Assembly: GCF_039877785.1 (NCBI RefSeq)
Contig: NC_092066.1
Span: 5,251,152-5,315,151, forward strand
Direction: 5' to 3'
DNA length: 64,000 nt
From: Chaetodon trifascialis
Lineage: Eukaryota
This document shows, in pieces, positions 11,847-46,414 of this stretch (its first letter is position 1; the number at the start of each line of letters is the position of its first letter). The translations under genes were made by a program, and so were the position numbers. A model generated the notes under the pieces. The model had not been told where the DNA came from. It saw nothing but the letters and a program-made list of their open reading frames with translations, and did not search any database.

Positions 11847-12430
11847 TTAGATAAACGCTTTTGGTGCATTTCCATTACACAGTTCCAGCTCTACTCGACT
11901 CGGTTCTGCTCTACTCTACTTGGGTTGGTTGAGTTTCCATTACAGTTGAGTACTTCATAGTACCTCCTCAACGTAGGCGGGGTCGTCATACCACGGCTGC
12001 ATGAAACTGCCATGACGTTAATTTGTACGCGACGCAAACAGAGCCGACAAACAATGGAGGACATCGAGGCGATGTTATATTCTTTCATCTGCCATCAAAC
12101 CCAGAAAAGTCTGGACCTCGTCGACGGACCACGTTGATATTTTACGAGCAGCCATTTCCCTCAGGTGAGAATAAAGAATAAAGTCAGAGGTTGCAATGGA
12201 GGGGGCGGGATTGTTTTTCCGGTGTTGGACGTCGCAGACCAGTGACGACACTCTCCGGCCAATCAGTGGCCGACAGGCTGTTGACGTCACACATATAGCA
12301 TCGCTTCTACTCGCTTGGAACCTCACCAGAGCAGGTACTAAAGATAGTATTGGGTACCAGGTACTATCCCTAATGGAAACACAAAACAACCGGGTAGAGT
12401 AGAGTCGAGTCGAGCCGCGCTAGTGGAAAT
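11847..12430. mobile_element. Non-autonomous DNA transposon (MITE-like, ~585 bp) with ~45-bp terminal inverted repeats. It is present in TEP1 copy-1 intron 11 only.
   Basis: The start gcatttccattacacagttccagctctactcgactcggttctgctctactctac is the reverse complement of the end gtagagtagagtcgagtcgagccgcgctagtggaaatgtggcat. The orthologous copy-2 intron (56289-56396) lacks it. Confidence 0.7.
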
Positions 12431-12500
12431 GTGGCATTTGTGTGCTAGTATGAAGTATACTGAGTTATAAACATAAGTGTTTCTGTGTCTGTACATTCAG

Positions 12501-12777
12501 ACAGAGGCAGTACACTGTCGCTCTGTTGGACCGCTACCGCAAAGCCCTAGAGACGGCGGTGCAGATATCCTGTCGGTACAACATTCCCCCGCTTCCTGGA
12601 CGCACTGTCATCCTGCTCTCCAGAAACATAGGGAGCGACTGGCCCCTGAAACAGGACTTCTGCCTGCCACCAGAACCCAATCAAAAAAATGAGGAGGAGG
12701 AGGAGGAGGAGGAAGGCGAGGAGTTCTGGAGGAGACAGAAGAAGAAGAAGGATGAGGATGAAAAGCTCACTCCTTCC
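12501..12777 (+). CDS. tep1: TEP1 c1 exon 12 (KQRQYTVALLDRYRKALETAVQISCRYNIPPLPGRTVILLSRNIG...EEEEEEEEGEEFWRRQKKKKDEDEKLTPS)
   Basis: cattcag| ... TCC|gtatgg. It contains a Glu run. Confidence 0.75.
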
Positions 12778-13284: not shown

Positions 13285-16030
13285 AGTTTATGTGTTCTCT
13301 CTGGGAACCATCACCTTATCGTGGTGGAGAGGATTGTGTGTCCCAATGAACCTGAGGGCTATGTTGTCTGGAGCCTAGTGCTCCTGGTAGGGTCTCCCAT
13401 GGCAGATTGGTTTGAGGCAAGGGTCCAGACTAAGAATGGTTCATACAGACCCCATGAAAGAACAGCAACGAAGAGGTGATACCTGGCCCGGAGGATACTC
13501 ACAAATCCTTGGCTGAGTGTATCCATAGTCCTTCTGGGGGACTTCAACACACACATGGGCAACGATGGAGACACCTGAAGAGGCGTGATTGGGAGAAATG
13601 GCCCCCCTGATCTGATCCCGAGAGGTTGTTTGTTATTGGATTTCTGTGCTAGTCATGTACTGTCCATAATGAACACCATGTTCAAACATAAGGACGCTCA
13701 TAAGTGTACATGGTACCAGAGCGCCCTAGGTCGAAGGTTGATGATCGATTTCGTTATCGTATCATCTGACCTGAGGCCGCATGTTTGGACACTCGGGTGA
13801 AGAGAGGGGTGGAGTTGTCAACGGATCACCATCTGGTGGTGAGTTGGGTCCGAGGGTGGGGGAAGACTTAAGACAGACCTGGTAAACCCAAGCGTGTGGT
13901 GCGGGTGAACTGGGAACGTCTGGAGGAGGCCCCTGTGCAAGAGATCTTGAACTCATACCTCTGGCGGAGCTTTTCTGGCATCCCTGTGGAGGTTGGGGGC
14001 ATCGAACCTGAGTGGGCGATGTTCAAAGCTTCCATTGCTGAAGCTGCGGCAGAGAGATGTGGTCTAAAGGTCTTGGGTGCCTCAAGGAGCGGTAACCCTC
14101 GAACACCATGGTGGACGCCGGTGGTCAGGGAAGCCGTCCGAGTGAAGGAGTCCTTCCGGGATATGTTATCTCGAGGACTCCAGAGGCAGTTACAAGGTAC
14201 CGACAGGCCTGATGGGCAGCAGCTTCTGCCATAGGGGAGGCAAAACAGCGGGTGTGGGAGGAGTTCGGAGCAGCCATGGAGAATCACTTTTGGTCAGCAC
14301 CAAGGTGTTTCTGGAAAACTGTCTGGAACCTCAGGAGGGGGAAACAGGGAACCATCCAAGCTGTGTACCGTAAGGATGGGACACTGTTGACCTCTACGGA
14401 GGAGGTAGTCGGGCAGTGGAAGGAGCTCTTTGAGGAACTCCTGCATCAGACCGATACGCACTCTATTGTAGAGGCAGAGCTGGAAGCTGATGGGGGATCA
14501 TCATCAATTACCCTGGTGGAAGTCACTGAGGTAGTTTAACAACTCCGCAGTGGCAAAGCCCCGGGGATTGATGAGATCCGCCCAGAAATGCTGAAGGCTC
14601 TGGGTGTTGAGGGGCTGTCTTGGATGACATGTCATTGCGTGGAAGTCTGGGACAGTGCCTAGGGAGTGGCAAATTGGGGTGGTGGTCCCCTTGTTTAAAA
14701 AAGGGAACCACGGAATGTGTGCCAATCATAGGGGTATCACACTACTCAGCCTCCCTGGTAAAGTCTACTCCAAGGTGTTGGAAAGGAGGGTTCGGCCGAT
14801 AGTCGAACCTCAGATTGAAGAGGAACAATGCGGATTCCGTCCTGGCCATGGAACAACAGACCAGCTCTTTACTCTCGCAAGGATCCTGGAGGGGGCCTGG
14901 GAGTATGCCCATCCGGTCTACATGTGTTTTGTAGACTTGGAGAAGGCATATGACTGGGTCCCCTGGGAGATATTGTGGGAGGTGCTGCGGGCGCATGGGG
15001 TGAGGGGCCATCCAATCTTTATATGCCTGAAGCAAGAGCTTTGTTCGGGTACTCGGCAGGAAGTCGGACTTGTTTCCGGTGGGGGTTGGCCTCCGTCAGG
15101 GTTGTGCCTTGTCACCAATCCTGTTAGTGATATTCATGGACAGGATATCAATGCGTAGTCGGGGGGAGGAGGGATTGCAGTTCAGTGTGCTGAAGGTCTC
15201 ATCACTGCTTTTTGCAGATGCTTTTTGCAGATGATGTGGTCCTGTTGGCATCATCGGTCTGTGACCTGCGGCACTCACTGGATTGGTTCACAGCCGAGTG
15301 TGAAGCAGCTGGGATGAGGATCAGCACCTGTAAATCTGAGGCCATGGTTCTCAGCAGGAAACCGATGGATTGCCTACTCCGGGTTGGGTCCTTGCCCCAA
15401 GTGAAGGAGTTCAAGTACCTCGGGGTCTTGTTCACGACTGAGGGGACAATGGAACGTGAGATTGGTCGGAGATTCGGAGCGGGGGGGGGGGGGGGGGGGG
15501 GGGTATTGCGTTCACTCTACCGCATCGTTGTGACGAAAAGAGAGCTGAGCCAGAAGGCAAAGCTTTCGATCTATCGGTCAATCTTCGTTCCGACTCTCAC
15601 CTGTGGTCACAAGGGTTGGATCATGACGGAAAGAACTAGAGCCGAAATGGGTTTCCTGGCTGGCGTCTCCCTTAGAGATAGGGTGAGAAGCTCAATCATC
15701 TGTGAGGGACTCGGAGTAGAGCCGCTGCTCCTTTGCGTTGAAAGGAACCAGTTGAGGTGGTTCGGGCATCTGGTAAGGATGCCCCCTGGGCGCCTCCCCA
15801 GAGAGGCGTTCCAGGCACGTCCAGCTGGGAGGAGACCACGGGGAAGACCCAGGACTAGGTGGAGAGATTATATCTCCACACTGGCCTGGGAACGCCTCGG
15901 GATCCCCCAGTTGGAGCTAGTTAATGTGGCCCGGGAAAGGGAAGTTTGGGGTCCCCTGCTTAACGAGTTAATGTCAACAAAAGACTGCAGTTCTAAGGTG
16001 AAGATGATTTAAAAAAAAAAAAAAAAAAAA
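13285..16030 (+). mobile_element. 5'-truncated, degenerate LINE (apurinic-endonuclease remnant plus RT with FADD motif) ending in poly(A). It sits in TEP1 copy-1 intron 14 only.
   Basis: ORFs 13896..14234, 14252..14539, 14655..15158 and 15212..16012 carry RT motifs (GITLLSLPGKVYSKVLERR, FVDLEKAYDWVPW, LLFADDVVLLASS). Frameshifts are present. The poly(A) is at 16010-16030. Confidence 0.85.
15478..15508. repeat. Poly-G homopolymer (~31 nt) inside the LINE RT ORF
   Basis: It is translated as GGGGGGG and replaces the segment that reads IGAAATVM in the sister LINE at 54510-54540. Confidence 0.9.
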
Positions 16031-16077
16031 GTGCAGCAGAGCCTGCCTCCCTGACCTCATATGCTTTTGTGTCTCAG

Positions 16078-20091: not shown

Positions 20092-20254
20092 GTGAGTTAC
20101 CTGCATAGAAAACTGAGGGAAAACACACCTGAGGTGAGGTCCACAGCATGGTTTGGATGCAGGACAAAAATTTGGTTAAAATTTTGTGTATTACGGTTGA
20201 ATTTTTAGGGATTTCTCTGCAACAGTAAAACTGAGATTCTCTTTTTCTTGCCAG

Positions 20255-25299: not shown

Positions 25300-27712
25300 C
25301 ATATCTTTATTTATTTTTTGTGTTCAAACAACAACAAACACTTTGAACATATGGCAGTAATGAAAGTAATAAGAGAAAAAAAAATACTAATACAGTTGAA
25401 ATAAATAATTTTTTTAAAAAAGGAAGAATAAATTACATCAAGGAATTAGTGAAATTACTGAGCAACAGGTAAATACAAGGAAGGAATAGAAGGGAGAAAA
25501 AGAAAAAAAAAAAGCACACTCTTGTCAGTACCTTAAATGTTATGTATTTCCCATTGCCACATCTGTATCTCCAACTTCCAACAGTTCTAGAAACAACTTC
25601 CAGATGTCATAAAATTCAGAAGGCTTCTTTCTGACAATATAGGTCAGCTTCTCAAGAGCCAAGCTCGACGTTAAGTTATTCAACCATTGGTTAAAAGAGG
25701 GGCAGCTAACATTCTTCCAACATAATGCAATACAGCGTTTGGCCTGCAGTAAACAATGGTCAACCATTTTTCTTTCTCTGTGAGATAAAGGACAGTCCTC
25801 TGGATAAATGCCTAAAATGCAAAGCTTAGGACATAGAGGTACAGGGGAAGTTGTGATTTGAGAGATATATTTTAACACAGAGCTCCAAAATTTTTGGATT
25901 TCTTTACATTTCCATAAACAGTGAAACAATGTACCCTGGTGGTTGTTGCATTTATAACAAAGATCAGGTACATTAGAATCAAATTTATTTAATTGTACAG
26001 GGGAAATATATGTTCGCATTATCCAGTTAAATTGTACCATTCTCAATCGAGTGTTGATGGTTTGAGTATGTGTTTTTAAACATATACTACTCCATTCACT
26101 GAGTGAAATGTCCTGTTCTAAGTCACTTATCCACTCCCATCTCTTACTGTCCAAGTTGTCATTATGATTTTCAACCAGCATATTATAAAACCGGGAAACC
26201 AATTTTTTTCCAAAACAGTCTTTTGTGACGTGTTTCTAAGGTAGATAATGGAGGTTGTTGTATTGAATTGTTTAAGTGAGACAAAATAAAACTTCGAAGT
26301 TGTAAATATTTAAAGAAATGTTTCTGTGGTATATCAAACTTAGTCTTTAACTCACTGAATGACATTAGAGTACACTCCTCATATACATCCTGCATTCTTA
26401 TTATACCCTTGTTCAGCCAAGTTTTAAAGCCCATATCGTTCTTTGCCGGGGCAAAGTGATCGTTACCCCAGATCGGGGCAAAACAGGACAACCTTGGAGA
26501 GTCACACAAGAATTTTTGTACTACATGCCAAACCATAATGGTATTTTTTACAAAAGGATTAGTAGTATCTTTCTTTAATGTTTTTAAAGATGCTGAGTAT
26601 AAATAGCTGTTCAGTGATAAACCTTTTGAGGATTGTTTTTCAATTTCTAACCAGGGCATGACAACGTCTTTAGAAAACCAGAACATTGTGGCCCTCAACT
26701 GTGCAGCCCAATAATACCATTCTAGATTAGGCAGTTGTAGCCCACCCCTATCGTAAGGTAGATATAAGAGGGAGAGTCTGAGTCTTGGCTTCCTATTGTT
26801 CCAGATGAAATTGGAAAGAAGCTTTTGGTCTTGGGAAAAAAAGAAGGAGGAGGGGCTAGTGGAATTGATTGAAAAACAAATAGGAATTTAGGTAATATAG
26901 TCATCTTTATTATGTTTATTCTTCCCAAAATAGAGAGAGGTAGCGTTGTCCATTTCGAGATTTCTTCTGACACGCTAAGTAACAAAGGTTCATAATTGGC
27001 TGAGCTGAGATTATTAATCTTTGGGGTTATTTTGATGCCCAAGTACTTAAATCCTTCAGTGGCATTCATAAATGGATGTGATACTAAAGGTTTCTTCCTT
27101 TCGTTTTCATTTAAAAACATTATAGATGACTTTTCTTTGTTTACTTTAAACCCGGATATATTTCCAAATTGATTGAACAGCTCCAAGAGAGATGGTATCG
27201 ATTCTGCAAGTTGTGATAAGAATACAATAGTATCATCAGTGTACATCGCTGTATTGTGTTCTAAATCTCCAATCTTAATACCATGAATTAAGGGATGAGA
27301 TCTGATCGCTATTGCTAATGGTTCCATGGCTATTACAAAAAGAAGAGGTGAAATTGGTGACCCCTGCCTAGTGCCCCGAAATAACTCAAAAGGCTGAGAG
27401 ATGAAATTATTAGTAGATACCATTGCAGAGGAATCAACAAATAAAATTTCGACCCAACGACGAAAGTGATCCCCAAATCCAAACCGTCTAAGCACCTCGA
27501 GTAGATAGGGCCATTCGACTCGGTCGAACGCCTTTTTGGCGTCAAGTGTTAAAATTTCAGTGTCCGGGGACTCTTCACATTCATGAATTATGTTAAGAAC
27601 TCTCCTCACATTGTGGAACCCCTGTCGCTTTTGCACAAAGCCATTCTGGTCTCCATGTATATTTGTGTGTTTTTTTAACATAAATCTCATATTTCTCTCC
27701 AAATCAATTGCT
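25300..27712 (-). mobile_element. 5'-truncated L1-clade-like LINE (RT plus C-terminal Cys-rich domain) in TEP1 copy-1 intron 38
   Basis: Minus-strand ORFs 26722..27702 (RT: DAKKAFDRVEWPYLLEVLRRFGF, GTRQGSPISPLLFVIAMEPLA, MYTDDTIVF), 26183..26698 and 25540..26202 (CYKCNNHQGTLFHCLWKC zinc knuckle). An A/T-rich 3' end on the plus strand lies around 25260-25400. Confidence 0.8.

Positions 27713-33801: not shown

Positions 33802-33805
<4 letters not shown>

Positions 33806-33894
<89 letters not shown>
33806..33894. repeat. (TG)n microsatellite (~44 units) in TEP1 c1 intron 51
   Basis: Direct reading. Confidence 0.95.
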
Positions 33895-33896
<2 letters not shown>

Positions 33897-34467: not shown

Positions 34468-36812
34468 AGGGTTGTGTATTGCCAAGAATCTGGCGATACC
34501 ATATTTATCACAATACAGGGGTCACGATTCACTATAATGTGATATATTGCGATACTGTAAACAGGGTGATATATTGCGATTTTTAAAAATCAAATTTTTG
34601 GAAATCTTATGCAAAAAAACATCACCACATGCATAAATCTTTTTAAAACTTTTTTATGAAATTGGAAAAGTGCATTACCATCATCCATGGCTGTAACATC
34701 CAACATAACATTTTATCAGATGCCTTACTTTTCGTGCAATGTGAGCAAAGGAATCAACATTTGCCTGAACATTTACCTTATCAGGAAATTAAGACTGTAT
34801 ACTAGTCCTTGTAACATCCATCAATATAACACTATTAACAGCAAATGAGGTAATATCTGTTCATATTAGTAAGAAATAATGCTTGCAGGATTCCTTTAGA
34901 ATACAATAAACAAATACAAACAAGAAGATCATCTGATCATTTTCACTAGGATTTCACTCTGTATGTATATCAGTGCTTATTTTTTTAATGTCAAAATAAA
35001 AGTGCTTGCAGGATACCGGAAGAAAACAAATGTAAACAAAATCATCACGTCCTATTGACCTGGATTTCACATTATTCCAGTCCGTGTCTATATCAGTGCT
35101 TATTTTGTAATGTCAAATAAAAGTGCTTGCAGGATTCCAGAAGAAAAAATTAAACAAATGTTAACACAAGCATCAGGTCCCATTAACCTGGATATCACTT
35201 CATTAAAGTTTGTATGTATGCCTGTGCTTATTTTTTAATGTCAAGGTTTTTGTGGAGGAAGACGAGCTGGTCAACATGTTCAGCTTTCAGGGCACTTCTC
35301 TGTGCATTTACTATGTCTCCTGCAGAAGAGACAACTCTCTCCGCTGAGACGCTTGTGCCAGGAATGCACAGAAAACACTTTGCTTCTCTGGATAGCTGAG
35401 GGTACTCTTGTTCATGTTCATGTTTTTTTTTTTTTTAATTTACTTACATTCTGTTGCTTCTGTATGGCAGCCACCACCGCATCAGTCAGTTTGGAATAGG
35501 TCTCTTTGGCCTCTGCATCAGAGAGAAAGGGTAGGTCCTTAAACCTAGTATCGAGAGCCGATGCCATGAGCAGTGTCTCCCTCTCATTGGCATATCTCTT
35601 CCCCAGATCTTGTGCTATAGCAGCCTTAATGTCCTTCACTGTCTGTGAATCATCCAGGCTGTTTTCTGTGGCCATGACTAGCTTGGCATGAAGAGGTGCA
35701 ATAATGGAAAGAGTGGGTATGCTCTCCTCTGACATCACTAAGGTGGCATCCTTCATTGGCTTGAGTGCCTTGAGCACTTCCTCTGCACATGTGATATCAG
35801 TATCATTGATGAGGTCCTTTTCATTCCTTCTGACTTCTGGTGAAAGGAGTGCTGCATAGATGGCTGGTGGTTGTTCTATGAATCTGTCTACCATGTCGTA
35901 AGAACTGTTCCATCTTGTGATGACGTCTGTGATCAGTCTGTGTTTTGGTAGCTGGAGCAGGTCTTGTTTGTGTTTTAGCTGGTCGCTTGCTATAGTGCTA
36001 CGACACACCTGATCCTGCCGAGTAGTCGAGCCACTGTTGGTAGTTTCAGTTCTTTCTGTGAGGCGAGATTCAGGATGTGTGCAAAACATCGGACATGGGT
36101 CATGTCTGCAAGTCCAGCCGCTACAGTCATATTTGATGCATTGTCTGTGACAATCACTGGATCTTTAGCGTCCAATCCCCATTCAGCAACGGCCTCCTTT
36201 GCCATGTTCTCTCCTGTGTGACTGCCATGCATCGCTTGTGTTTGTAACACATGTGAGTCCAGCTTCCACTCATCCGTTAAGTGATCCGCTCTGATCGTTA
36301 CGTACGATTCAGTGGCCCTCAATGTCGATGCGTTGCACGTCAAAGCGACTCTCTCGGCTGAGCTAAGAGAGTCCACCACCTTTGTTTTTACCTCATTGTG
36401 GGACCTGGGAACAGCAATGTCAGTCAGAGTATTTGACTTTCGCATGGCATATGTTGCAAACGGCATGGCTCAAATTCTGTAGTCCCTTCTTTGTTGTGGA
36501 ATCCAAAATGCGCCCACACTTCAGCTTTGTAGGCCGCAGGAGCTGGTCTAACTGTCTCCTCCATCAGCTAACATTAAGTGAGCTAATGCTAGCAGTGTGG
36601 GCTGCCGCCTTCTTCTTCCCTCTGCTATTGAGTTGGAGCGGAAGAGTTCATACTGCCATCTAACGGTCAGGAGTTTAAATACAACACAAAATAACCGCTG
36701 CCATGATGTACAGTAAACTGTTAATTAAATATCGATACTGTGTTTTTGAATATCAATACAGTATTGTAAAAGATAATATCGCGATACTTAAGTGTATCGA
36801 CATTTTCTTACA
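34468..36812 (-). mobile_element. hAT-superfamily DNA transposon (degenerate transposase with hAT dimerisation region) in TEP1 copy-1 intron 52. Termini read TAGGGTTGTG...CACCCCTA.
   Basis: Minus ORFs 35990..36466 (DPVIVTDNASNMTVAAGLADMTHVRCFAHILNLASQ) and 35418..36089 (hAT C-terminal region). Terminal/subterminal repeats at 34468-34600 and 36700-36812 share ATATCGCGATAC-type motifs. Confidence 0.7.
34960..35270. repeat. ~125-bp tandem repeat x3 (gtgcttattttttaatgtcaaaataaaagtgcttgcaggat...) inside the hAT element
   Basis: Three near-identical units start near 34975, 35097 and 35218. Confidence 0.8.
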
Positions 36813-38539: not shown

Positions 38540-41000
38540 AGTGTACATATAAATATTACAGTAGGGCGGTATCCAAATTTTGATACCGTCAAACCTTCCC
38601 CACATTTTCCCGGGGTATACGGTATTACCGGCCAATTAAAAATCACTTTGCAGGGCAGCCTGACATGCGCGCAGTTCAGACGGTCAATGCTCACGCTAAG
38701 AAGCACCAATCCTAACTTGTAGCAAACCAGAATGACGGGGAGAAACTCAGCTGAAAGCCTCCACCAAGCATTGCCACCCAAACGAAACATAATTCATACC
38801 CCAAGAAATTATATGCGCACGTAACGAAAACACGAAAATAGCGCACGTCAACGGTACTGAATCTGCTGATTTCACCACTTCACGCAAACCACAAAAGCCC
38901 GCTATCATATGAAAGCAGAGAGTCTGATGATCACGAAGATATCTGAGTGAGTGCCTCCTCACTGTCCGACGAAAATTCGGCGAGCTAGCAGCTAAAGAGT
39001 AGCAGAAAAAAAAACTTTGCTAAATCATACAGTATGTCTTACCTTCGCTGTTTTGTGGTCAAAAGTTATATTCCAGCCCGAAAAAACGCTGCTAATGTCT
39101 CCTCCTATGACTCTGCGTTAGTTTGAGATCAATCGCGAAGGTCCTGGTTATTTACATTAAGAGGAGGGGGTTTCTAGAGTGGAGGGAGCGCTCTTCATGC
39201 AATAACCTATCTCTGGGGTTACTTCCTTCTGGATCGTCATTGGTGTTTCTATGGTGAATTTGGGCGGGTCGCTGAGCTATTGACGGGTCGCTGAGCGCAC
39301 ACAGAGGACTCTGCTGAGCAGCCTGAAGTCTTATTTTACTGTTTTATTTGCATTTCGTCCTTTTATGAGAGCTAAGAACAATAGCAAGCAGAAAAAAGGC
39401 TGAAAAAGTGTTTTCAACAGAGGCGTTTCTCTGTATGCTTGTGTAACCCAGTGGTCATTTAGCCAGTCTGTGTATTCAGCGTTAATAGACACACTGTCTC
39501 TTTAAGAGTCCCAACAATAAGCTCCGGTGTAGAGTGGTGATCTCAGAGCAGGAGATTTCGCGGGTTCGCTTGACTTTTATGCTGAGTAGAGAGAAGACAC
39601 AGCAAGCTGTAGCCAGTCTCTAGCCATCTTACATGTCAAGTCACATCTTTTATGATGTTTCCTACTAGGTGAGCACATATATATTTAATGTGTGTGGTTG
39701 TGCTTGTGTTGTGAAAAGAGGTAATTTGCTGGTGTATGTGTAAATGTGTGTTTTTCAGTGTTAAAATGTTAATCTCTATCTTAAACATTAATTGCTAGTT
39801 AAGATGCTAATTGCTAAGTCATAGCTGACAGCTAACAGCCTTTTAAATGAGTCATTATGATGGTTTAGAGTTGTTTGTGTGTGTTTAATATTAACACTGT
39901 AAACTCTACCCACAATGTATATGAGTTTAAAACTTCGCTTGACTCTAATGCTGAGAGATGGGAAGACACAGCAAGCTGTAGCCAGTCTCTTGCCGTCTTA
40001 CATGTCAAATCACCACTTTTCTGATGTTTCCTGCTAGCCGATGGGTGTGGACCGGAGCCAGGTAGAGACTGCTGTTTCCCGGACGTGTCGTTGCCACCAC
40101 CCAGCTATGCGCGTGGATCACTTGAGTATCAAAAAAACTATTCTTTTTATAGAGCTCTAAAGTATTTTTTTTAATATATATATATTTTAGTTACAGGTAT
40201 CCAATTTTTTTTATTTTATTTTTATTTTTTTCCTTCCTGGACTAAGTAATACCAGATTGCGAATAACCACAATCTGTGGAGAGGCTTAACTGTTCATTAT
40301 CCAAGAACAAAAGGACTGATTTAGTTTTGATAAAAACTGAAAAGACATTGCACAACATTTTTGGGTTTTGATATTTCAGCAACTACATTGTTTTCATTTA
40401 TTTTTGTTGTCTGATTAAGTCAGATCATTTATAGTGAAGCCGAAGAGAATTTATTTTGATATATTACTCTTTTTGTGTGTGTGTGTTTAATATTTTGAAG
40501 TGATTATGTCACAACAAATAAAAGACATATATTGAGTTGAACAAACTGACATTTGATTTACAGGAAAGGTATGTTCCAGTCCAACAATTTTTTTTTTTTT
40601 TAAATTGGAATTAGGTAGCATGCTACTGCCAGACCCTGGAATAAAGTCCTTGTTGAGAACATTAAATCTATCTGGTCCCATCTCTACTTTTTGTTATTTA
40701 AGGAGGGACAAATTGCTACTCAGTTACACTTGGACAAGATAACGGTGCTCTGCCCAGATGCACCCAAATGAGTGCCTGGACATACCTGTGTTAAAACATA
40801 GCATTTACTTTTGCACAGTCACCTTTATCTCGGGTAAAAATTCAACCAGATACATTGAACGGAGTGGACTTCATTTATGTTATGACGATGCTCCAATTAT
40901 GTTAGGCCCCTATAGACCTATACGCGCAGCTTTTTTTTTAATGACGTAATGAAATTGATAGGGTTTATGGTTGCCAAATCACGTTATGCTGTTTATTGTG
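38540..41000. mobile_element. Unclassified DNA-transposon-like element downstream of TEP1 copy 1. It contains a ~400-bp internal direct duplication (39520-39680 / 39900-40040). Parts of it (38540-39430 and 40770-40990) recur inverted at 60400-61482.
   Basis: Direct sequence identity: 38563-39430 matches the reverse complement of 60690-61480, and 40780-40950 matches the reverse complement of 60470-60640. Confidence 0.6.
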
Positions 41001-42738
41001 GTCTATTTCTGTGTTGATAACCTGGCTAACCCGGTAGCTCGTTAAAGCTAATAATTGCTAATAGCAAGCAGTTGCTCACACGTGTACGTTCATAGTATAA
41101 GCCTATAACATTGGTTGATGTAAGCTAAGAGGAGGATTCATTCTTATTTCATTGATTATTTACCATATTATTTCATTGGTTAATTACTACTACTGGTGGC
41201 CCAGTGTACAGTTAAAATAACATGCTGTACTGATAATTTCTTTTCTCTGTGTTACAGAACCACACATAAACCTACACACAGGCTCCTCAGACACAGTTTC
41301 ATACTGTACTTTATTATTGATGGACAATAAAAGAATGAAAGGAACATCATCTGGACTGCATTTTAACTGATGCCCCCCTGCGGCCCCAAGTGTTTCCGCC
41401 CAGCACATATACAGTCTTTAGAATAATCTCCAGAACAAAACTAAATGTAATCGCCGCAGCCAGGGGTGAATAAGCGTTCGCCGGCTCATTAAATGCAACG
41501 AGACCACAGATAAGATGTGAGAAGTGAGCTTCTGAAACCATCAGTCGACTCTCGAACAGTTGATCAGCAGATAAACAGGCCTCTGGCTCTCGTGTGTGAG
41601 AGTTAACTGAGTGCATTCGGAGACTTCTTCTTTCACTTTTGTCACTTTGATGCTTTACTGACCAGATGATCAATCAGCTAATCAAGAAAATAAAGAGCAG
41701 ATTACACTGCTTGTTGCAGCATGACACTAATACATGAACTTCATGTGCGAGCGTGTACTATTTAAGATCCTGAAATTCCAGGCTTTCCCTAAATCTCAGC
41801 TGCTCGACTGGGTGGACCAGAACGGCAGTTACACAGCCGAACGGCCACACCTATAAACTGTGGGACAGCACTGAAAACTTCTTTCTCTATGACCAAAACA
41901 AAAGAAAGACACGTTTTGAGCTCTATTTGACATCAACGAATGTTATAACTAAATGTCACCTTTCTCTCTGCTGGTTATCCATCACAGTCAAACATCATGT
42001 CTGCTTTTACCGTGTCAGGGAAGCATTACTGTCGTGTGGATTTTCAAATAAGCACTTAAAAGTGCTTATATTATAAACATGCAGTGATGACAAAAAAAGG
42101 CAGGATCTTCACTGATGGTTGACTAATCGCGGTAAATTTCAAGTCTCAGAAAGTCTGGTCTCGTGCTCTACTGAAATTATGGGAAGCCAGTAGCTCCATG
42201 GAAGTTGAGAAAGACCAAAATTGTTCAGCATTACTGCACACTTTGAAAATGAAAGTTGATAGTAAGTGGGCTGAAACATGCTTAAACACGTGTAGACATT
42301 TAATAACTTCATGGTTATATGTAAAGATAAGAAGCTCTACTGCCAAATATTCACATTATTTAATTGTAAAATCTTTTCTTTGCTCCATAACTTGCGACAG
42401 ATTTTCACTCTCATACTTTACACTTATCCATATGGCAGTACCTCAGCAGTGGTTGGCAAGATCATGTTGATCATATCATGGAAAAGGACAATGGGTCTCT
42501 AATTATCCACAGTGTGTAGTGATACGTGCTCTAGTACAGAACAACCCTCCCTTCCTTACTTTCCAAACGTCTTAGCTCAGCCGCCACATGTTTTCCGATC
42601 TGGAAATAGCCACATGAATGTTTCCTGCCATATGCACAACATCTGATTTTAATCTCACCTGCATGAATTTGCATGTTTACCATCCGTTTTTCATCTGTAT
42701 TTTATTGTTATGCAAATACATCAACTGAACTTTGTTAC

Positions 42739-43814
42739 CTCTTATGGTAGACGCAGAGGCAAGCCAGCCTGGCGATGGTCTCCCCCTGCACCAGATCCTC
42801 CAAACAGATGGAGCACTCTCCGCTGTCTTTACTGAGCACATCCGCTGCACACACACAAAGTAATCTTAAGAGTGTTTCCAGCTTTTGAACAACACAGCCG
42901 TCTGGGCCATTTCTGACACATGATACTTACTGTTGTAAGGTAAGGGTGGAGATGTGAGGCAGCTCAACAGGTGATCCTCAATCCGACCCCCCGGGAAGGG
43001 CTTTGAGCAGAAGGGACAGCGGATATCTGTGAAGAGCGGAGACACAACAGAGGTGAGATTAACACACTGTCACAGCGGGAAATAAATGATGGATGTGCAT
43101 CACATTGAGCGTGAGTGCTGCATTTGGACATTTCGATTACACAAGCTGACTTGGCAAACCGAGGAGCCCGCTGAAACACAAATGACCAGTGTGAATGCTG
43201 CACTCTCATCCCAGAGATGGTGTGAATGACGGTGCCTCAGGTGACCAAAAATAGTTTGAAACTTCATTTGACTGCATGCACCAGGCTAAACAGTGACAAA
43301 AGCTGGAGGGGAAGCCGCTGCGAGAGTCATGAGTGGATGGGACGTGCAGGCAGGAACAGTGCCTTGCTGCCCTACATTCTCCTCCTCCATCTATGAGCTG
43401 CTGCCAGCAGTGAGCAGGCATGTGAAGTTGTGACCCATTTCCCTACACTTGCTAGAGGCGAGCCTGGGAAACCCACCACACTGGTGTGCTTTGTCTCCTC
43501 TCTGGGTTGATGTTCCGTCTTCCTCGGGTTTCCCCTCGCTGTTGTTGTCGTCCATGGGTGACGCTTGGCTAATGCTGGAGGGAATGCTGTGGTGGTCAGC
43601 GGGGCTGCCATTGGCGCTCGCCCCATGCTGCCCCAGGTCCGAGTTGCTGCCCTCCTCTGATCAGCTCCGGTTGGCCTCCGTGTCCTTGAAGCTCCCCGAG
43701 AAGTCCACCATGAGGCTGGTGGATAGGAATCCGATAGGAATCCCGCTTTGTGCCATCTCTTCCAAAAGCAGAGGGAACCGGGTCTTCTTGTAGGCGACTT
43801 GCTCTTGTCCCCAT
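42739..43814 (-). pseudogene. ZNRF-like copy 2, truncated. Exon 3 (~42739-42844) and exon 2 (~42931-43026) are intact. Exon 1 starts at 43814 (MGTRASRLQEDPVPSAFGRDGTKRDSYR...) but is hit by a ~1 kb deletion relative to copy 1 (3880-4925) that removes its 3' part and donor. Exon 4 is absent because the duplication breakpoint falls in intron 3.
   Basis: ORF 43596..43814(-) shares only the first ~28 aa with the copy-1 exon-1 ORF and then shifts frame. Sequence around 43440-43500 joins copy-1 positions ~3880 and ~4925. Nothing homologous to the exon at 1656-1713 occurs upstream of 41437. Confidence 0.65.
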
Positions 43815-44837
43815 CTCCAGTGAGCTAGCTAATTCAGCTGGCTAGCCAAGCTGCTTTCTCAAAGCGAACCACCACAAAACCAGAATCAGAAATCAGAATC
43901 AGAAAAAACTTTATTGCCAAGTACGATTTTACACATACGAGGAATTTGTTTCGGTGAAGTTGGTGCATGACACATCTAGTAAAAATAACCCAGAAAGCAA
44001 AAATCCATTGAATCAACATTGCGATATGGTCATGGCTTAAAATTGAATCAACACTGATGTCAGACATTGAAAGTAACATGGTAAGCGCTCGTTATGATCA
44101 ACATTGAAATAATGTTAAATTTTCAATCAGGCTAAACATTGATTCAATATTTATTCAACTACATCATTTTCAACATTGAAACAATGTAGAATTGTCAATT
44201 AATCTGAACATAGAATCAATATTGATTCATTTATAAATGCATTGAAATTACATTGATTCTACATTGCAACAATGTTATTAATTAAAGGACCATTACAGCA
44301 CTTTTCAGCCATCATCTGTAGGTTTTAAATATGCTTCATGCAAGGCAAATTGCATGAAGCATACGCGATTTGAAGCGTCATTTTGCCGGGCGACGCGATG
44401 GACGCCCCATCGCGTTATCGCTTCATCGCTCGAGTTGAAATAATTGAACTTTTGCGGCGGATTCGCGTGAAGACGCGCCGCGACAGCCCATCAGCGTTGA
44501 GATCGTCATCGACGTGCTGACGTACGGACGTGGTCGACGAGAAAATGAAATGGCGGAAGAAATGTTGTTGTTGGGCGGGTTTTTGTACCAGCGTCAAAAC
44601 TGGAGCGTCTGGCGCGACGCGATTTCATTTGGAGCGCGATTAAACAATTTTCATCGCGTTTGGTGGGAACGTAGCGTTAGCCTGGCAGGGGGCAAGTAAA
44701 GCCTGGTGGCCCGCCAGGCTTATAATACACTGGGGGAAACCCTGAACCCTCAGCGTAGCCTCTGCACACGGACACACTAGCGTTAGCTAGCGTTATCTAG
44801 AATGCTAGCGCTAGCTAATGCTAACGACGTTAATAAG

Positions 44838-45195
44838 CTACAACCATCCATCCATCATCTATACCGCCTATCCCTTTCGGGGTTGCGGGGGGCTGGAGCC
44901 TATCCCAGCTACAATGGGCGAGATGGGTACACCCTGAACCGGTCGCCAGCCGATTGCAGGGCCACATGCAAAGACAGACAAACATTCACACTCACACCTA
45001 CGGACAATTTTTTAGAGTCATCAATTAACCTAATGAGCATGTTTTTGGTCTGTGGGAGGAAGCCGGAGTACCCGGAGAGAACCCACGCATGCGGGAAGAA
45101 CATGCAAGCTTCACACAGAAAGGCCCCGCCTGACCCGGGGATCGAACCGGCAACCTTCTTGCTGTGAGGCACGCGCACTACCTGCTGCGCCACCG
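44838..45195 (-). mobile_element. tRNA-derived SINE (teleost type) with a 3' (ATGG)n tail
   Basis: The minus strand reads GGGCTGCACGGTGGCGCAGCAGGTAGTGCGCGTGCCTCACAGCAAGAAGGTTGCCGGTTCGATCCCCGGGTCAGG (A/B-box-like tRNA head), then ...CAGGGTGTACCCATCTCGCCCATTGTAGCTGGGATAGGCTCCAGC...GATGGATGGATGG. Confidence 0.8.
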
Positions 45196-45689
45196 TGCAG
45201 CCCTAAGCTACAACCTCACGGTAATAATTCACAAAGTTGACATGCTGGTGAAAATACATTGTGTTCTCATTAGGACTTACCAGTTTGTCTTCTTTTGTCA
45301 CTCGAAGATAATAAAAGCCGCTAAAAGCTGTCAACCGCTGCCAACTGTTGACTGGTTTGAACTGGTTTGGTCTCAGGAGAGAGCAAGTCTCGTGGGCGGG
45401 GGCACAGGTGCACAGCCACAGCATGCCATACATTGACATCATGTCTATTTAATGTTGACATTTCAACATTGAAAACCCAGCATCTATACAATGCTGATTC
45501 AACAACATTTTTTCAAATGTTGAAATGGTAGCTCTAATTCAATACTGAATAAACATAGATTTTTCAACTTCAACCAAAAATAACCAATTTCACCAAAATT
45601 CAACGTGGAATCACTGTATTTTGCTATCTGGGAAGCTATTACAGAAGTAAAAAATATAACAATAAGTAAAAAATATAACAATAAATATA

Positions 45690-46414
45690 TATACACAAGT
45701 CTGTTTTTTTTTTTGTTGTTGTTGTTTTTTCTGGAAACAGTCTGTTTTTTCAGAAGAAGTCCAAGCTGAGCATTAATGTTATGCAGAGTTACGCAGTGTC
45801 AGTGTGACAGATGAGGCAGTGGTGGAGTGTGAAGAGTGTCGGGGGGTTCCAGGCCTTGTTAATAAGGCTGACAGCAGACGGGAAAAAACTTGTGGCATGA
45901 GGTTTTGGTCCTGATGGACCGCAGCCTCATGCCAGAGGGAAGTGTCTCAAAGAGTTTGTGTTCGGGGTGGGAGGGATCAGCCACAATCTTTCCTGCACGC
46001 CTCAGGGTCCTGGAGGTGTACAGGTCCTGAGGAGACGGGAGATTGCAGTCAATCGCCTTCTCTGCAGACTGAATGACACGCTGCAGTCTGCCCTTGTCCT
46101 TGGCGGTGGCAGCAGTGTACCAGATGGTGATGGAGGAGGTGAGGATGGAGTCAATGATGGCTGTGCAGAAGTGCACCATCATTGTCTTTGGCAGAGTGAA
46201 TTTCTTCAGCTGCCGTAGGAAGTACATCTTCTGCTGTGCTTTCTTGAAGAGGGAGCTGATGTTCGGCTCCCACTTGAGGTCCTGGGAGATGATAGTTCCC
46301 AGGAAGCAGAAAGACTCCACAGTGTCAATAGTGGAGACACAGAGGGTGATGGGGGCAGGTGAGGCTGAGTTCTTCCTGTAGTCCACAACCATCTCCACTG
46401 TCCTGAGTGGAAAC
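45690..46414 (-). mobile_element. LINE 3' fragment (RT C-terminus) on the minus strand
   Basis: ORF 45859..46398(-) reads ...VESFCFLGTIISQDLKWEPNISSLFKKAQQKMYFLRQLKKF..., a common fish LINE ORF2 tail. Confidence 0.75.

Follow-up and report, generated by a model that had tools for sequence, protein, structure and literature searches.

The 64,000-nucleotide stretch of Chaetodon trifascialis contig NC_092066.1 analysed here (hereafter the window) carries an intact gene for a ZNRF-family E3 ligase at 1656-5285 and a second, truncated copy of that gene at 41436-43883, both on the minus strand. We interpret the second copy as a non-processed partial pseudogene of the first, generated by a segmental duplication with one breakpoint inside the ZNRF gene and then left to neutral decay. 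The probability that we assign to this interpretation is roughly 0.87. Copy 1 and copy 2 denote below the two copies of the duplicated segment, which also includes TEP1, the divergently transcribed neighbour of ZNRF. A preliminary description had already proposed that the copy-2 ZNRF-like gene is a truncated duplicate. Self-BLAST and gapped global alignment confirmed the proposal, and the coordinates given at the time proved good to a few bases (left edge at 41437, here 41436; ATG at 43814; deletion from ~3880 to ~4925, here 3884/4920).

Organization of the duplicated segment

Self-BLAST identified two direct, colinear copies on the same strand of one molecule, the first (copy 1) starting at 1831 and reaching at least 20177, the second (copy 2) occupying the rest of the window from 41436, with BLAST E-values of 0 for the matching blocks, far beyond chance. 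The offset between the copies at their left edge is 39,605 bp. Homology reaches the final bases of the window (copy-1 position 20177 corresponds to copy-2 position 63997), which fits a tandem unit of 1831-41435; the counterpart of copy-1 20178-41435 would then fall past position 64,000. The window consists of the letters A, C, G and T throughout, with zero runs of N.

Gapped global alignment resolved the ZNRF part of the segment. Copy-1 positions 1831-3242 correspond to 41436-42847 at 98.9% identity, and positions 3243-3884 to 42850-43491, also at 98.9%; in copy 2, a (TG)n tract that immediately precedes the exon-3 acceptor has gained 2 bp. After a gap of 1,035 bp, 21 bp of copy 2 match copy-1 4920-4940, and two further blocks complete the alignment (4973-5182 with 43513-43722, and 5202-5354 with 43731-43883). 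Over 13.2 kb aligned, the copies differ at 2.5% of sites. This divergence is uneven, at 0.7-1.9% per kb in copy-1 1.8-11 kb and 2.3-7.9% in copy-1 11-20 kb, which may reflect gene conversion homogenizing the promoter-proximal 10 kb or regional differences in rate.

The parent gene

The intact ZNRF gene is organized as follows:

1656..5285, minus strand: parent ZNRF-family E3 ligase gene, four exons, 261 amino acids, GT-AG introns with consistent phases
5285-4760, minus strand: exon 1, with the ATG at 5285 and the donor GTAAGT
3419-3324, minus strand: exon 2
3239-3134, minus strand: exon 3
1713-1656, minus strand: exon 4, encoding SCIDSWSKVKPCCPEHPFD and the stop codon; outside the duplicated block and the sole copy in the window

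Over 100% of its length, its product shares 95% identity with an Anabas testudineus protein, and a Scomber scombrus protein is 94% identical to it; the best protein matches of the window genes come from percomorph fishes. The fish orthologues are annotated as ZNRF1 or ZNRF2. The product scores 30.8 bits on Pfam zf-RING_2, for which the cut-off is 27.3, and PDB 5YWR chain B, the zinc-finger/RING part of ZNRF1, aligns with its residues 174-261 from end to end (E=5e-34). The ligands of the C2HC finger (C179, C182, H194 and C198) are encoded in exon 2. Those of the RING are divided between exon 3 (C218, C221, C236, C238 and H241) and exon 4 (C244, C255 and H258), and together they form a C4HC2H pattern, the one that NCBI gives in its title for the Anabas orthologue. 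The N-terminus MGTRAS, found in both copies, fits the myristoylation motif MGxxx[ST], as a sequence motif only. The motif definition for N-myristoylation is that of PROSITE PS00008. This modification targets ZNRF1/2 to membranes (PMC10869362).

The copy-2 remnant lacks the terminal exon

In copy 2, the following parts of the gene are recognizable:

41436..43883, minus strand: whole ZNRF pseudogene, aligning to copy-1 1831-5354 at 94-99%, apart from indels
41435/41436 (corresponding to copy-1 1830/1831): left boundary of copy 2, in ZNRF intron 3, 117 bp from the parent exon-4 acceptor; homology starts abruptly
42739..42844, minus strand: pseudo-exon 3, encoding half a RING (C218, C221, C236, C238, H241), with one synonymous difference (CTG>CTC) and intact AG acceptor and GT donor
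42931..43026, minus strand: pseudo-exon 2, encoding the C2HC finger (CPFC...HLLSC), identical to the parent exon, splice sites intact
43491..43492: junction of the 1,035-bp deletion (copy-1 3885-4919)
43492..43814, minus strand: pseudo-exon 1 remnant, with the ATG at 43814

The pseudogene thus comprises, in order, an intron-3 remnant, exon 3, intron 2, exon 2, an intron-1 remnant, the exon-1 remnant and 69 bp of 5' flank. It keeps the intron-exon structure of its parent, since introns 1 (in part), 2 and 3 (in part) are colinear at 98.9%, as is typical of a non-processed pseudogene.

The preliminary description placed the duplication breakpoint in intron 3 and held the terminal RING exon to be lost, and both statements stand. 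The boundary falls within that intron, 117 bp short of the exon-4 acceptor, and so copy 2 never included exon 4. The DNA to the left of 41435 (37.7-41.4 kb) is instead the region downstream of TEP1 copy 1. An exon-4 homologue overlooked between 38000 and 42700 would have changed this picture; none was found there or elsewhere in the whole window by tblastn (word size 2, E up to 1000) and blastn (word size 7) on both strands, and the best other matches to exon 4 have E-values of at least 0.2, at chance level.

The missing exon had been thought to supply the last ligand pairs of a RING-H2. It does encode the last ligands, but these are three in number (C244, C255 and H258) and belong to the C4HC2H arrangement of the ZNRF type rather than to a canonical RING-H2. 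Copy 2 therefore keeps only ligands 1-5 of the eight that make up a complete C4HC2H RING. With exons 2 and 3 alone, the zf-RING_2 score is 19.3 bits, under the 27.3 cut-off.

Disabling lesions of copy 2

Exon 1 of copy 2 has been damaged several times. The preliminary description had noticed a deletion of ~1 kb, by which the 3' portion of exon 1 is lost along with its donor. This deletion measures 1,035 bp and takes coding nucleotides 367-526 of exon 1 (160 nt) together with the GTAAGT donor. It also removes 875 nt of intron 1, among them a block that is conserved in Anabas. A second, 32-bp deletion (copy-1 4941-4972) at 43512/43513 is flanked by a TTCCG direct repeat and eliminates codons 105-115. 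Further upstream in the coding sequence, 19 bp have been replaced by the 8-bp filler ATTCCTAT at 43723-43730, a local duplication, the net loss of 11 bp causing a frameshift at codon 29. Apart from a single K>R change, codons 1-28 are kept; the open reading frame (ORF) that begins with the ATG at 43814 then runs out of frame to a stop at 43596-43598, a length of 72 codons. In the ancestral frame, a CGA>TGA nonsense change has affected codon R55, now a TGA at 43663-43661.

No uninterrupted frame leads from the N-terminus through the zinc finger to the RING in copy 2. The C2HC finger upstream of the RING is preserved at the DNA level and cannot be translated in frame. The remnant was initially portrayed as a myristoylation-motif N-terminus followed by finger and half-RING exons. 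The motif and exons 2 and 3 are indeed present, but exon 1, with its frameshift at codon 29, its TGA and its 32-bp deletion, cannot be joined to them. The accompanying suggestion that a functional E3 might be regained if a new 3' exon were captured has to be abandoned: exon 1 is already multiply disabled, so that no E3 ligase could be recovered by acquiring a 3' exon.

Exact look-ups of the 72-residue ORF of copy 2 in public assemblies, including Logan, gave no match; the parent exon-1 ORF was likewise unmatched and the species appears to be unrepresented there, which makes this result uninformative. Rfam and tRNA scans of the window gave no matches.

Polarity of the changes

The orthologous locus of Anabas testudineus (L001) served as the outgroup. 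It contains the sequence missing from copy 2: positions 11038-11260 correspond to copy-1 4247-4025, an intron-1 block absent from copy 2, and the Anabas protein includes the exon-1 residues deleted from copy 2. The alternative that the 1,035 bp were inserted in copy 1 was rejected, since Anabas carries the sequence; it was deleted from copy 2. When the exon-1 block was aligned three ways, Anabas agreed with copy 1 at 30 of the 37 sites that differ between the copies, and 13 of these 30 are CpG transitions. A stricter, BLAST-anchored count gave 18 changes derived in copy 2 versus 2 in copy 1. The ranges over the counts for this block are 18-30 and 2-5 substitutions, respectively. The disabling lesions, like those expected of a non-processed pseudogene, are thus derived in the copy: because the outgroup sides with copy 1, the sequence comparison indicates that all lesions are copy-2-derived. 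A second outgroup locus (L002), the TEP1 locus of a more distant fish, was of no help, as ZNRF is not adjacent to TEP1 there and the downstream DNA is unalignable.

Two blocks of ZNRF intron 1, 3740-3894 and 4025-4247, are conserved with Anabas at 90% and 84%, respectively, which equals or exceeds the conservation of the coding exons. A regulatory role is possible for them, as is use as alternative exons. The 4025-4247 block was lost from copy 2 through the 1,035-bp deletion.

A split promoter with one-sided CpG decay

One more element separates copy 2 from its parent:

43884..46415: composite repeat insertion of 2.5 kb, in copy 2 only, absent from copy 1 and Anabas

The repeat sits 69 bp upstream of the pseudo-ATG and splits the ZNRF/TEP1 bidirectional promoter region and its CpG island. 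The Anabas locus is contiguous across the insertion site, as is copy 1. The insertion includes an ORF resembling a retrotransposon tail (45859-46398, minus strand), with a Pfam match to PF09004.

On the ZNRF side of the repeat, 371 aligned bases of exon 1 and 5' flank contain 31 CpGs in copy 1 versus 17 in copy 2. Twelve sites that are CpG in copy 1 are TpG or CpA in copy 2 and none shows the reverse change (binomial p=5e-4), and the observed/expected ratio of CpG falls from 0.87 to 0.55. The 446 bp of the island that face TEP1 have kept 23 of 24 CpGs, with an observed/expected ratio of 1.1 in both copies. The difference in CpG loss between the two sides is significant (Fisher p=0.003), and no CpG asymmetry was detected in the remaining duplicated blocks. 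Because the ZNRF half lost ~45% of its CpGs by CpG>TpG/CpA transitions, we infer that this half of the copy-2 island was probably methylated in the germ line, and hence silenced, and that the half belonging to TEP1 copy 2 (TEP1') was not.

Origin of the fragment

We propose that a direct segmental duplication, most likely in tandem and with a unit of ~39.6 kb, would have had its left breakpoint in ZNRF intron 3 and its right end ~3.8 kb downstream of TEP1. It would have copied all of TEP1, the shared promoter and ZNRF exons 1-3, without exon 4. Under a tandem arrangement, the unit would be 1831-41435, with TEP1-downstream DNA joined to ZNRF intron 3 at 41435/41436. Lacking three RING ligands, the new fragment would have been unable to encode a complete RING from the start and hence would have been freed from constraint. 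It would later have accumulated the 1,035-bp deletion, the 19-to-8-bp replacement, the 32-bp slippage-type deletion, the CGA>TGA change and the 2.5-kb repeat insertion. After these lesions, the ZNRF half of the split CpG island would have lost ~45% of its CpGs, with those of the TEP1 half being retained.

Several points weigh against this scenario. The splice sites of pseudo-exons 2 and 3, and the exons themselves, show no damage. The heterogeneous divergence between the copies might be due to gene conversion, in which case the order of events would be harder to establish. On its right side, copy 2 ends past the window, so that tandem adjacency is deduced as the most likely arrangement rather than observed, and the silence of copy 2 and the reality of the assembly are likewise deduced from the sequence.

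Regarding the assembly, two divergent haplotypes of one locus might have been misplaced in tandem, in which case the pseudogene would be a null or structural-variant allele. Assemblies of heterozygous fish do sometimes contain false tandem duplications, and the copies are only ~2.5% diverged overall, although nothing speaks directly for such an artefact. We give it little credence. The absence of N gaps and the private transposable-element insertions found in both copies argue for real paralogues. There are at least seven large private indels or transposable-element insertions in 20 kb, distributed over both copies, and local divergence is as high as 5-8%. Moreover, at 41435/41436 unique DNA from downstream of TEP1 passes gap-free into ZNRF intron 3. 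Were copy 2 an allele, it should have retained exon 4, because a haplotig would not end exactly where the sequence switches cleanly to TEP1-downstream DNA.

The fragment might, on the other hand, be genuine and still in use, either as a non-coding or antisense transcript from the split promoter or through splicing of exons 2 and 3 into a chimeric gene, a known fate of partial duplicates (PMC3449122, PMC4546093). The preservation of both pseudo-exons and all four of their splice sites would fit such a role, as would the undecayed island half of the adjacent TEP1', which may be active. Nevertheless, youth alone accounts for the intact exons: the ~1.1% local divergence predicts only ~2 changes in their 202 bp, so their integrity is uninformative on selection. 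With the exon-1 donor deleted, CpG decay of the methylation type on the ZNRF side, and 2.5 kb of repeat parting the fragment from the rest of the promoter, continued use appears very unlikely; the copy-2 ORF was also unmatched by exact look-up, though so was that of the parent. It is hardly credible that copy 2 encodes a short functional protein, such as a myristoylated N-terminal, dominant-negative competitor of the full-length ligase. The MGTRAS motif and the first 28 codons have been kept with one K>R change, but the 72-codon ORF is out of frame after codon 28, where it is unrelated to any ZNRF sequence. The promoter is disrupted, and the lesions are exactly those of neutral decay, namely CpG transitions, slippage deletions and nonsense in the old frame. 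We thus retain the view that the fragment is a partial pseudogene, which would have no function.

The duplicated TEP1 neighbour

The plus-strand neighbour of ZNRF is TEP1 (telomerase protein component 1), recognizable by its DUF4062, TROVE, NACHT and WD40 regions. As a guide for its exons, we used a 2,618-residue protein (P0254) from a representative-library search, two prior protein searches having given fragments only. Tblastn placed the two genes as follows:

5546-37646, plus strand: TEP1 copy 1; residues 256-2614 of the 2,618-residue fish TEP1 (P0254) map to 7669-37646
46416..64000, plus strand: region of TEP1 copy 2, 5' part, gene from 46616 and running off the window; residues 256-1300 of P0254 map to 48753-63909

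In Anabas, the ZNRF gene is head-to-head with a gene for a 2,603-residue protein, their start codons being ~250 bp apart; the ZNRF/TEP1 arrangement is therefore ancestral. The duplicated unit comprises the entire TEP1 gene with ~3.8 kb of downstream flank, the bidirectional promoter and ZNRF exons 1-3, and this fish appears to carry two TEP1 genes encoding proteins of ~2,600 residues. Across 16 exon blocks present in both TEP1 copies, neither differs from the other by a frameshift or a stop, and the ratio of nonsynonymous to synonymous differences per site (pN/pS) is ~0.54. At sites alignable with Anabas, 18 changes are derived in copy 1 versus 31 in copy 2, an asymmetry that is not decisive. 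One TEP1 exon (12499-12672 versus 56395-56568) shows 12 nonsynonymous changes and 1 synonymous change between the copies, clustered in ~11 codons (NIGSDWPLKQD versus TIKTYWCLDHD). We also considered reciprocal loss, with TEP1 copy 1 broken by a 580-bp insertion in an exon. This was rejected, as the inserted element, which resembles a miniature inverted-repeat transposable element (MITE), lies in an intron and the shared exons show no frameshift or stop that sets the copies apart.

There is a slim chance that the ZNRF relic and the 2.5-kb insertion have remodelled the bidirectional promoter of TEP1 copy 2, or that exons 2 and 3 have been exonized into a chimeric or antisense transcript. In the former case, a methylated ZNRF half next to an active island on the TEP1 side would place the second TEP1 gene in a different regulatory context, as in sub- or neo-functionalization.

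Repeats and private insertions

The insertions confined to one or the other copy are the following:

43884-46415, ~52089-55801, 60405-61474 and ~61935-63336: private insertions, copy 2
~13296-16048 and 11859-12438: private insertions, copy 1, the second being the 580-bp MITE-like element

The MITE-like element has terminal inverted repeats and interrupts a TEP1 intron in copy 1 alone. The private insertions 52089-55801 (copy 2) and 13296-16048 (copy 1) carry retrotransposon reverse-transcriptase ORFs. A 72% match between 14675-15960 and 53715-55016 corresponds to two independent elements of one family, outside the duplication homology. A long interspersed nuclear element lies in a TEP1 intron at 25540-27702, and ORFs resembling hAT-type transposases are found at 35418-36466. 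The region 38554-40960, downstream of TEP1 copy 1, matches 60463-61477 in inverted orientation at 87-95%, the latter being an element in a TEP1' intron of copy 2; these matches are dispersed copies of one transposable-element family. Long dinucleotide microsatellites (9474-9537, 33802-33895 and 50315-50394) generate many spurious self-BLAST matches, and a microsatellite of the Anabas locus (L001 15168-15223) also matches those of the window.

Relation to known families and processes

The parent copy has the features of the ZNRF1/ZNRF2 family, namely an MGxxxS N-terminus, a C2HC finger and a C-terminal C4HC2H RING. In contrast, copy 2 consists of DNA of exons 1-3 only, without ligands 6-8 and with no ORF in the ancestral frame past codon 28. 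It is a relic of the ZNRF family and not a member at the protein level. The human genes are located at 16q23 (ZNRF1) and 7p14 (ZNRF2); unlike either, the fish paralogue adjoins TEP1.

Partial duplicates arising from intragenic duplication breakpoints are a recognized class in the complete/partial/chimeric scheme of Katju (PMC3449122), and the median duplication span of young human duplicates is 36 kb (PMC4546093), to which the offset of ~39.6 kb is close. The present case has all the marks of that class: a DNA-mediated, direct intrachromosomal duplication, an intragenic breakpoint, retained introns, one missing end and subsequent degeneration. It departs from the class in nothing essential, the only extra being a complete TEP1 duplicate from the same event. 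The loss of CpGs resembles the erosion of CpG islands after promoter silencing or methylation, being one-sided (C>T and G>A), restricted to the dead copy and polarized by an outgroup. Here, the erosion ends at the repeat that splits the bidirectional island, sparing the TEP1-facing half. Altogether, this is a common, ordinary outcome of segmental duplication, a textbook case that leaves existing knowledge unchallenged.

In annotation, 41436-43883 is best treated as a ZNRF pseudogene rather than predicted as a short protein without a RING; the gene at 1656-5285 is the intact one. More generally, the locus offers a clean, small example of how a head-to-head gene pair can give rise to one complete (TEP1) and one truncated (ZNRF) duplicate. 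The truncated ZNRF copy has gathered multiple lesions within ~1-2.5% divergence, and the erosion is confined to the dead half of a split bidirectional CpG island.

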